Shown in pieces: positions 60,001-63,000 of a DNA stretch of 64,000 bases; the stretch's first letter is position 1, and every line of letters starts with the position of its first letter. The position numbers are program-made. The stretch is taken from NCBI RefSeq assembly GCF_053078305.1, contig NZ_CP166875.1. One strand, given 5' to 3'. The DNA is from a plasmid.

Positions 60001-63000
60001 CAGCAAAAACGGAACGGCAACAGGCGCATTCGGAGCCTGGACAGATAAACCGGGAGACTACGGACTTACCTGTTCGACAGGTCACATCGCCGTCGTCATG
60101 AGCGGTGATGACCTGCAGGAAAGTGACCGTCTCTACCGTTTTCAGGTAGCAGGTCGTCCTGAACTGAATCAGATGCATACTGCAATAAATATGGGCGGGA
60201 ATAACATAAACAACACCGGCAATATCAATGGTCAGAGTGCCACACTGAAAGGTGATATTACGAGTGAAGACGGCTGGCTAATCACCAGAAACAATAAGGG
60301 ATGGATGAATATCACACATGGTGGTGGATTCACCATGACGGACAGCCAGTGGATACGCGCGGTTAATGGCAAAGGCATCACAACCACCGGGGAAATCAAA
60401 GGGGGGAAAGTCAGTGGTGGTACAGTCCGGTCTGACGGTCGTCTTTCAACCGGGGAGTATTTACAGCTTGATAAAACAGCTACGGCAGGCACAAAGTGTT
60501 CACCGGACGGACTTGTAGGCCGCACCAGTACAGGGGCCATACTTTCGTGCCAATCCGGTATGTGGGCAGGTTTTGAATCCTACCCTGTCGGAAGCCCTAT
60601 ACCGTGGCCATCAGCCACCCCTCCACAAGGCTACCTGGTGATGAACGGGCAGTCATTTTCATGTTCCCGGTATCCTCAGCTTGCCCGTGCTTATCCCGGG
60701 TGTAAGCTGCCGGATTTGCGCGGTGTTTTTATCCGTGGCTGGGACAACGGACGTGGGCTGGATGGAGATCGGAACAGACATCTCCTGAGTTATCAGGCCG
60801 ATCAATCCGGTGTCTATCATGAGCGTGGGGGATGGCTGAAAGGGCATCACAGCGGTATGCCTTACTGGGCCCAGGGAAGCACAACGGAAATGCGCCCCAA
60901 AAACATTGCCTTTAACTACATCGTCAAAGCAAGCTGATGCATTTAAGGCGTATTAACTTTTAACTTACAGCAACGTATTTTGACCCAGACCATGCTTCCC
61001 GAATACCCCGGTTTACCTCTGTACGCTCTGAATCCTGCCGCACCATAGCCTGCTTTGCCGTCACAGACGGCAAAGCCGTTTGAGCCACTACCCCAGTTCG
61101 CATAAACCGGTTTTCTGGAGTCTTCTTCTGCGTCATAACAGGCCGAATAATCAAAAACCAGTGCATCGCTGATATTATTCTTCCAGACACCGGATTGGCA
61201 CGCTGGCTACTGCCTGACGCTTAATTAAATACCGGCCCCAGGTATATTGAGACACGTAACAGATATCGTTCCACCTGACTCATAATTACCCCACGCATAA
61301 TTATTGACATACCAGACATTATTTTTATCGGAATAAACCTGCTGAAAACCACCGAAAGGAGAACCATTAAGATACGTCCATGCACAATATGCATGGACAC
61401 CAAGTCTGAAATTACGAATATTTTTTCCGATGTTATAGGTCTGCGTTGTGAATTTAATTTCAGTTGACCGCCAGACACCGGATTGGCACGAAAGTATTGC
61501 ATTTCTGTATCCAGCCTCCTACCTTCCCCGTTTTTATCGTGGAAGGCAGATATGTTTCAAAAAAACAAAACTCGCAAAATGTCCCTCAGCCGGGCACTGG
61601 ACAAATACCTGAAGACTGTTTCCGTCCATAAAAAAGGTCATCTGCAGGAGTTTTATCGCGTCAATGTGATTAAACGTCACCCTATGGCCGATCGCTATAT
61701 GGATGAAATCACTACCATTGATATCGCCAGTTACCGGGATCAGCGTTTAGCTCAAATTAACCCACGAACAGGGCGTCAAATCACCGGAAATACCGTCCGT
61801 CTTGAACTTGCCCTTTTATCATCATTATTCAATATCGCCCGTGTGGAATGGGGAACATGCCGTATGAATCCTGTTGAACTGGTCCGAAAACCGAAAATCA
61901 GTAATGGCCGCGACCGCCGACTGACTTCTGGTGAAGAACGCCGCCTTTCCCGCTATTTCAGGGACAAAAATCCGCAGCTCTACGTTATCTTCCATCTGGC
62001 TCTGGAAACAGCAATGCGCCAGGGAGAAATTCTCTCATTACGCTGGGAACACCTCGATTTGCAGCACGGCGTGGCGCATCTTCCTGAAACGAAAAATGGC
62101 TCACCACGCGATGTCCCACTCTCCCGGAAAGCACGTAACTACCTGCAAATTCTGCCACAACAGATAAACGGCAATGTGTTCAGTTACACCTCGTCCGGTT
62201 TCAAAAGCGCCTGGCGTACCACTCTTCTGGATCTGAAAATAGAAAATCTGCATTTTCACGATCTCCGCCATGAGGCCATCAGCCGTTTGTTCGAGCTCGG
62301 CACACTGAACGTTATGGAGATTGCAGCCATTTCCGGTCACCGCTCCCTGAACATGTTGAAACGGTACACACATCTCCGGGCATATCACCTGGTCAGTAAA
62401 CTCGATGCAAGGCGTAAACAGACCAGCAAAATTTCCCCTTATTTTGTTCCCTACCCTGCAACTGTCAGAAACAGAAACGGAGTGTTCATTGTGACACTGC
62501 ACGATTTCGACCTTGAAAGCCGTGCTGAAACCCGGGAACTGGCAATATCTCACGCCAGCGTATTGTTGCTGCGCGCACTGGCCCAGGCTGCTCAGCGGGG
62601 TGAACGCGTCCCCACACCAGGCGAGCTACCCGCAAACATTGATGAACGGGTCATGATTTGTCCGTTAACAAACAGCCAGTTCATGACAAAAGCGAACAGT
62701 ATTTTCATATCCTCCTCCTGAACAAATAATTTTTGTTCAAAATTAACGCTATGAGACCCTTTATGAAACACTTATCCTCCCGTGCAGCCACTGCGGATAA
62801 TAATCGTATCGTAACAATTGAAGACGTTTACACAATCGCATTCTCGCAACCAATTCACACCGAATCAGCGTTGGGGCAAAGGTGGATGTTGATCCATACT
62901 GGTGAATATGAAAGTGCCAGCGATGCAAAACGCTTCCTTGATACGCTCGTCACCGGGCACTGTGCTTGCATGGTAACACCATCACCTGTTCTGGATCATG

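Follow-up and report, generated by a model that had tools for sequence, protein, structure and literature searches.

A three-site Rci/sfx shufflon with three alternative PilV tails, the current one a phage collar-type domain, on an Escherichia coli IncK2/Z plasmid

The window, that is, the whole 64,000-nucleotide stretch of plasmid DNA that was analyzed, carries on its plus strand a complete pilM-pilU operon for a thin (type IVb) pilus at positions 51237 to 59568. The operon contains pilM, pilN, pilO2, pilP, an ATPase gene, a gene for a T2SS-F-like protein, the major pilin gene (57851-58387), a lytic transglycosylase gene, and a prepilin peptidase gene (58933-59568); these names were taken from the RefSeq annotation of pE2855-1, with which positions 50570 to 64000 are 100% identical, base for base. 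It is followed by pilV, by an array of recombination sites and tail cassettes, and by the recombinase gene rci. From pilV through rci, the sequence is shared at 100% identity with many E. coli plasmids of types IncK2/Z, MOBP, and MPF_I, in which PGAP names the gene "shufflon system ... PilV" and a site-specific integrase then follows; the pil operon thus belongs to a plasmid of conjugative type. Positions 47512 to 64000 are also 99.9% identical to pRHB29-C10_2. Positions 1 to 40215 represent accessory cargo common to IncF STEC plasmids and lie outside the IncK2/Z backbone; colinearity of the whole window with pRHB29-C10_2 or pE2855-1 was considered and rejected, the shared backbone extending only from position 40216 onwards. 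Members of the plasmid family occur commonly in STEC, aEPEC, and EHEC strains.

The constant region of pilV (59573-60546, plus strand) encodes 325 residues, with the N-terminal type IV prepilin motif KG|FVLFE and a match to the Pfam family Shufflon_N over residues 34 to 329, ending at the first recombination site. The entire 64-kb window was searched for the 19-bp sfx motif GTGCCAATCCGGTNNNTGG, allowing up to three mismatches and using 100 shuffled sequences as the control. Three matches had no mismatch, and six were found at three or fewer mismatches, against a mean of 0.48 in the shuffles, none of which (0/100) reached six. Site s1 (60547-60565, plus strand; GTGCCAATCCGGTATGTGG) consists of a 12-bp conserved arm followed by a 7-bp spacer with the triplet ATG and is read in frame as C-Q-S-G-M-W. 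Site s2 (61183-61201, minus strand; GTGCCAATCCGGTGTCTGG) is inverted relative to s1 and has the spacer triplet GTC; site s3 (61471-61489, minus strand) is the same as s2 base for base, including the triplet. The three 19-bp sites, one direct and two inverted, that had been claimed in the first-pass annotation were therefore recovered as exact matches. The sites are asymmetric, their 12-bp right arm is the same as that in all seven R64 sites, and all three share one reading frame (C-Q-S-G-x-W), in frame with the end of the pilV constant region. The outer flank of s3 is a repeat of that end (ATACTTTC), and s1 and s3 form an extended inverted repeat of 30 nt with 27 of 30 positions matching.

The array is therefore oriented as one forward site followed by two reverse sites, s2 and s3 being direct repeats of each other, and it comprises two segments: segment 1 (s1-s2), which holds the convergent cassettes T1 and T2, and segment 2 (s2-s3), which holds T3 alone. 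Two sets of additional sfx-like matches were rejected. An sfx-like 13-mer within T1 (60803-60815), considered as a fourth site, matches the arm at just 8 of 12 positions and is not conserved in the T1 homologue of pEC013, and the three-mismatch matches at 25087 and 38867 fall in an inverted repeat, 92.5% identical, within the cargo and are unrelated to the shufflon. Scans for promoters and terminators across the array gave matches at chance level.

The cassette currently fused to pilV, T1 (60548-60937, plus strand), adds 126 residues beyond the arm, giving a 454-residue PilV whose open reading frame (59573-60937) runs through s1 to the stop codon at 60935-60937. T2 (60943-61200, minus strand; 80 to 85 codons) converges on T1 with a gap of 5 nt between the stops, and T3 (61225-61488, minus strand; 84 to 87 codons) lies beyond s2. 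All three PilV fusions are open, with total lengths of 454, 413, and 415 residues for T1, T2, and T3, respectively, each with its complete tail. The GC contents of the cassettes differ (0.55, 0.47, and 0.38, respectively, against 0.50 for the constant region). The first reading had described the alternative tails as Cys-rich and as rich in Tyr, Asn, and Trp; the latter description fits T3, in which 10 Asn, 7 Tyr, and 4 Trp occur among 84 residues, while "Cys-rich" mildly overstates the composition of T2, which has 5 Cys in 80 residues, including a C-terminal CC.

T1 encodes a phage tail-fibre collar domain, with significant matches both to the Pfam Collar profile and to solved collar domains. 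The match to PF07484 (E = 6.7e-12) covers the whole 57-position model and corresponds to PilV residues 340 to 387. Further matches were obtained to the tip of the T4 gp37 long tail fibre (2xgf; E = 1.3e-19), including its extreme C-terminal NIAFNYIV strand, to a short tail fibre (E = 8.7e-14), and to the tail collar fibre protein family PHROG 523 (E = 2.2e-42). Between the two gp37-matched parts of T1 lie approximately 40 residues, at the place occupied in gp37 by the needle and head. T1 homologues at about 87% nucleotide identity are present in hundreds of B/O/K/Z-type plasmids, and those that are unfused are often labeled "tail fiber protein" or "phage tail protein" by PGAP. The collar-domain nature of the current tail was absent from the first-pass annotation.

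By comparison, T2 and T3 had no PHROG match. T2 is narrowly distributed, occurring in 114 plasmids, all at 95% identity or higher and intact in most of them, and it belongs to an orphan family with 5 clusters among 5.8 billion proteins. Its sole relative at 71% identity lies in another pil context, with an rci-like gene beside it and a variant sfx arm, TGTCAATCCGG. A BLASTP comparison of T2 with the seven R64 tails gave no match. Remote homology of T2 could not be established by comparison with the R64 tail C', the pairwise alignment covering just the sfx-encoded N terminus (E = 0.014); in a global alignment at 28 to 32% identity the two share a similar Cys framework, a likeness that is suggestive only. 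Alignment of the three tails with characterized PilV variants, which had been proposed earlier, yielded a counterpart for T3, 85% identical to an R64 tail, and left T1 and T2 unmatched. The synonymous and nonsynonymous divergences were 0.68 (pS) and 0.07 (pN) between T3 and its R64 counterpart and 0.49 and 0.02 between T1 and its pEC013 homologue; on such sequence comparisons, the silent cassettes are kept as coding sequence under purifying selection. An NCBIfam search of PilV and its tails returned no family, a result attributed to the library and not to the gene.

Directly downstream of the array, an intact open reading frame (61552-62721, plus strand) encodes Rci, a 389-residue tyrosine recombinase specific to the shufflon, with a Pfam Phage_integrase match (1.8e-24). 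The motif residues R156, H236-x-x-R239, H263, and Y272 are present and conserved, and identity to R64 Rci is 75% over 373 aligned positions (residues 6 to 372 of 389), including the additional C-terminal domain. In NCBIfam, Rci matched just generic Xer or integron models, far under their cutoffs. A hairpin is predicted over the rci Shine-Dalgarno sequence (z = -2.2).

Two nested inversions had been proposed from the positions of the sites, and both are geometrically possible and represented by isomers in public records. The inner unit, s1 x s2 (60560-61188), is predicted from site geometry to flip segment 1 and thus exchange T1 for T2; the outer unit, s1 x s3 (60560-61476), flips both segments and fuses T3 to pilV. 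The outer span had initially been given as 60567-61470, but it is wider than that, because the inverting DNA includes the variable part of the spacer. The proposal that the alternative tails are fused in frame by inversion was borne out, although the outcomes are not limited to two inversions: the outer inversion reverses the middle site, after which segment 1 is free to flip alone, so that four isomers are possible in silico, namely, A+B+ (PilV-T1, the state of the window), A-B+ (PilV-T2), and B-A- and B-A+ (both PilV-T3).

The four in-silico isomers of positions 60300 to 61560 were compared with 72,556 plasmid records (PLSDB), and records covering the full query were counted. The resulting census, which consists of consensus assemblies giving the majority isomer of related and phylogenetically non-independent plasmids, contained 39 A+B+ records, 1 A-B+ record, and 6 B-A- records; B-A+ was absent from the 72,556 records. 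At the level of assemblies, inverted isomers are thus present in seven public records of relatives. The six B-A- records matched in one piece at 100% identity. The A-B+ record, CP027379.1, matched at 95.6% identity and has T2 fused to the constant region with T1 reversed. The skew of 39:1:6:0 towards T1 may reflect slow switching, a biased equilibrium, or selection.

The clearest pair of isomers is formed by pRHB29-C23_2 and pRHB29-C10_2 (CP057335 and CP057346), two plasmids of 119,787 bp from one farm sample series whose sole difference over the 36,088 bp compared is an exact 917-bp inversion. The reverse-complemented block corresponds to window positions 60560 to 61476, bounded by s1 and s3, and the window is identical to pRHB29-C10_2 over the shufflon region compared (55300-63960). 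That sibling plasmids differ by the inversion alone implies that switching occurs on short time scales. In every isomer examined, the spacer triplet travels with its cassette, which locates the effective exchange point either inside the conserved arm or at its margin; such linkage is consistent with each cassette owning the left half of its sfx site.

Related plasmids carry smaller and larger arrays. Two-site relatives lack exactly the 288-bp s2-s3 unit, the absence of which could be due to rare excision, to homologous deletion, or to an ancestral state. They hold the same cassette-linked T1 and T2 sites and occur in both orientations, one (L012) with T2 on and one (L013) with T1 on, and PilV-T2 is annotated in them as an expressed protein; T2 is fused to pilV in the natural records L008 and L012. 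In one-site relatives, rci is deleted and the array is locked in T1, and a six-site form is present in pEC013.

Taken together, these observations indicate, with a probability of roughly 0.93, that a functional Rci/sfx shufflon occupies the 3' end of pilV on this conjugative E. coli plasmid of the IncK2/Z type (I-complex). In the proposed mechanism, Rci would invert the DNA between facing sfx sites, and each inversion would swap the C-terminal ~80 to 126 residues of PilV while leaving the 325-residue constant part unchanged; because the sites lie in the same codon frame, every inversion is expected to replace the PilV C terminus. Rci is known to bind the conserved arm, to bring in another monomer at the variable arm, and to invert only between facing sites (PMC11852207, PMC9045228), and it has been reported to act without excision between direct repeats. 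Variants of PilV are known to recognize different LPS-core structures, and in R64, TP114, and pCT they determine which recipients are entered in liquid matings (PMC5350095, PMC9045228). As extrapolated from R64 and TP114, PilV would be located at the tip of the thin pilus, its tail would bind a surface structure of the recipient, as with the LPS core in R64, and the choice of tail would set the recipient range in liquid matings. By this analogy, we infer that T1, T2, and T3 act as recipient-specificity tails for the plasmid studied here. Both observations by which the first-pass annotation could have been overturned turned out the other way, in that inversion products are present in public records and rci is intact.

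The shufflon might instead be nearly frozen, the collar tail T1 being the working adhesin and inversions being rare accidents with little biological role. This is improbable but has some evidence in its favor: the T1 state accounts for 39 of the 46 three-site records, rci has been lost in many relatives, whose arrays are locked in T1, as has also been stated for pO113, pO26_vir, and pSERB1 (PMC3377399), and the hairpin over the Shine-Dalgarno sequence of rci points in the same direction. Against it, sibling plasmids from one farm sample differ just by an inversion, rci is intact, and the silent cassettes are under purifying selection; moreover, consensus assemblies give the majority isomer only, and the plasmids sampled are not independent of one another.

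A second alternative concerns the target of the tails, which might be host-cell or abiotic surfaces, with roles in adherence, aggregation, or biofilm formation, and not conjugation recipients. The frequency of the plasmid family among STEC, aEPEC, and EHEC strains fits such a role, and adhesion and biofilm functions have been raised for I-complex thin pili (PMC3377399). This explanation is nevertheless unlikely as a replacement for recipient recognition, since PilV variants determine liquid-mating recipient specificity in R64, TP114, and pCT and T3 shares 85% identity with one of the R64 tails; adhesion and recipient roles are, in addition, not mutually exclusive.

The number of functional sites bears on how the array has been described previously. 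The "unique shufflon" of the IncZ plasmids pO26-CRL125 and pO111-CRL115 (Venturini et al. 2013, PMC3817090) is the same locus, with 99.5% identity over 1261 nt and the same three sites, and was described as one invertible segment that selects between two C termini of PilV; in these plasmids, T1 and part of T3 only are annotated, and T2 is unannotated and carries a 1-bp frameshift, whereas T2 is intact in the window. If only the outer sites were functional, there would be one segment with two termini, T1 and T3, with s2 and T2 surviving only as a dead remnant. That description, the frameshift, and the census, in which six outer-inversion isomers occurred alongside one inner isomer and none of the fourth type, are all in keeping with this reading. 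It is very unlikely, however, because CP027379.1 is an inner-inversion isomer with T2 fused to pilV, because the T1/T2 sites of two-site relatives are found in either orientation and PilV-T2 is annotated there as expressed, and because most of the 114 plasmids with T2 have it intact and s2 equals s3 base for base. That the host's homologous recombination machinery generates the isomers from the short inverted repeats, with the 30-nt s1/s3 repeat (27 of 30 positions matching) as a substrate, has a near-negligible probability, given that the identical stretches are just 13 to 20 bp long, that the breakpoints lie exactly inside the conserved sfx arm with the triplet staying with its cassette, and that next to the array lies an intact gene for a close homologue of a recombinase that has been demonstrated to catalyze such inversion. 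The three-site, three-tail reading, backed by the natural T2-on isomers, is therefore more complete than the published description of one segment and two termini.

Within this working three-tail shufflon, a further and decidedly tentative interpretation concerns T1, which may represent a complete gp37/gp12-type phage collar module placed on the tip adhesin of a conjugative pilus, with a His-rich insert of ~40 residues replacing the receptor-binding needle. I-complex plasmids and phages might then share a pool of receptor-binding modules, and the array could be a bet-hedging switch with a default tail plus two reserves, governed by a strongly biased isomer equilibrium and not by free shuffling. 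Minor pilins of the type IVb class, CofB among them, form trimers at the tip of the pilus, an arrangement that would suit a trimeric collar module.

The system as such is already known and annotated, the same shufflon having been published in 2013 (PMC3817090), and small shufflons are not new either, since single-segment arrays have been recorded, as have IncK2 arrays with between two and eight sites (PMC5350095). PilV tails help to decide which bacteria I-complex resistance and virulence plasmids enter in liquid, for example, in the gut, and the true cassette repertoire of IncK2/Z plasmids consequently matters for predicting their spread. Assemblies of IncK2/Z plasmids may legitimately differ by 629-bp or 917-bp inversions, and these should not be counted as differences in plasmid epidemiology.

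The closest well-characterized relative is the shufflon of R64/ColIb-P9 (IncI1), for which NC_005014 served as the R64 reference. Its 12-bp arm, GTGCCAATCCGG, and the TNNNTGG spacer after it are the same, as are the in-frame C-Q-S-G-x-W placement and the position at the end of the pil operon and upstream of rci. The earlier remark that the present array is small compared with a seven-site R64 shufflon was correct: R64 has seven sites, four segments, and seven tails, and the locus described here has three sites, two segments, and three tails. The constant region of PilV is just 41% identical to that of R64, and the spacer triplets are ATG and GTC here as opposed to ACG, ACT, ACC, and CGG in R64. 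Among the tails, T3 has 85% amino acid identity to the tail at site 2067+ of R64, whereas T1 and T2 are without a BLASTP match in the seven R64 tails; the R64 counterpart of T3, which shares a segment with the PGAP-labeled C', is presumably R64 C.

Within the same plasmid complex, IncK2 shufflons with two to eight sites have been documented (Seiffert et al. 2017, PMC5350095). These and the shufflon of pCT (IncK1) belong to the same 19-bp repeat family, with arrays of two to four sites known, and differ from the present array in their cassette sets and spacer triplets. The IncK2/Z plasmid pEC013 has six tails, including homologues of T1 and T3, and the segment partner of its collar tail is an R64 A-like tail, in contrast to T2 here.

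A fusion of PilV to a collar domain under programmed inversion was reported for the chromosomal locus CP084655.1, together with the proposal that phage domains have been repurposed for recipient recognition (Milman et al. 2023, PMC9881135). That case has the same Shufflon_N plus Collar (PF07484) architecture and is chromosomal and from another organism, whereas the collar tail described here is one of three cassettes in a widespread E. coli plasmid family. The tail-fibre switches of phages, such as the Gin/G segment of Mu and the Cin/C segment of P1, follow the same logic, in that an inversion swaps the C terminus of a receptor-binding protein. Serine invertases acting on two sites drive the Mu Gin and P1 Cin switches. 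T1 itself is homologous to the collar of T4 gp37, but with ~40 residues in place of the needle and head.

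Relatives of this shufflon included two reduced forms, a two-site array and a locked array. In the first, represented by NZ_CP129253.1 and NZ_CP075666.1, the array was that of the window without exactly 288 bp (61190-61477), which correspond to the unit delimited by s2 and s3, the two directly repeated sfx sites distal to the constant pilV region; the sole remaining segment occurred in either orientation. This two-site form reflects either excision between direct sfx sites or an ancestral array that predated the gain of the tail cassette T3. Rci has been reported not to excise between direct sfx sites. 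In the second form, many relatives were fixed by deletion in the T1 state, with the currently fused tail retained. The deletion in one example, NZ_CP129264.1 (IncI-gamma/K1), spans positions 61197 to 62556 of the window, beginning within s2 and ending close to the 3' end of rci, where a weak arm-like sequence matched by eye at 7 of 12 positions. The T1-locking deletion may have been an aberrant Rci event that destroyed rci itself.

A hairpin (CCUUCC...GGAAGG, 61519-61549) was located just upstream of the rci ATG at 61552, and the likely Shine-Dalgarno sequence of rci is paired within its stem. Its free energy was -15.7 kcal/mol, compared with -10.7 in shuffled sequences (z -2.2), and the predicted structure could limit translation of Rci. 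The interval from rci to traE contains two small conserved hypothetical genes, encoding WP_000681898.1 (62765-63052, + strand) and the predicted very hydrophobic product WP_000695052.1 (63145-63465, - strand); both were kept beside rci in every IncK2/Z relative examined.

Single-base frameshifts in public records influenced the published description of this locus. A frameshift in T1 of NZ_AP017613.1 splits pilV into "PilV" and "tail fiber protein," and another was found in the alternative tail T2 of pO111-CRL115 and pO26-CRL125. These frameshifts may be sequencing errors or genuine inactivation.

Positions 1-40215 of the window were not IncK2/Z backbone and showed 98-99% identity to IncF STEC plasmid cargo, including DUF2235/DUF2931 genes, toxin-antitoxin pairs, a sugar-acid utilisation cluster, and colicin immunity genes; one match to this region also contained senB/TieB. 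The composition suggests that the plasmid is a mosaic or cointegrate, absent as such from PLSDB. Approximately 13.5 kb of the cargo was flanked by a 362-bp inverted repeat (24878-25238 and 38734-39094; 92.5% identical). Two 3-mismatch matches to the sfx pattern, at 25087 and 38867, both fell within this repeat and had no link to the shufflon.

A T2-like tail (71% identical) was found in Logan SRR18079826 (locus L017, 3985-4291), flanked by two direct copies of the variant site CTGTCAATCCGGTGTGTGG. Its neighbours are pilM, genes for a transglycosylase and a topoisomerase, and an rci-like integrase that is divergently oriented. Given this different setting, the T2 family is also found in another shufflon, which is probably of the ICE type. 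The variant sfx of L017, TGTCAATCCGGTGTGTGG, resembles a 13-mer inside T1, CAATCCGGTGTCT (60803-60815), which equals the core of s2 and s3. The 13-mer matches s1 in frame and orientation, encodes D-Q-S-G-V-Y as against C-Q-S-G-V-W, and matches the sfx arm at only 8 of 12 positions; its counterpart in the T1 homologue of the IncK2/Z plasmid pEC013 is degenerate. It may be a relic sfx site or a mere reflection of the encoded motif.

On their outer sides, past the sfx arm, s1 and s3 were flanked by the same additional 8 bp, ATACTTTC, giving a 30-nt inverted repeat (60536-60565 and 61471-61500) with 27 of 30 positions matching. The outer inversion, whose two sites carry this extended repeat, was the commoner isomer in databases. 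In R64 and pEC013, the terminal sfx site nearest rci lacks the 8-bp extension found at s3.
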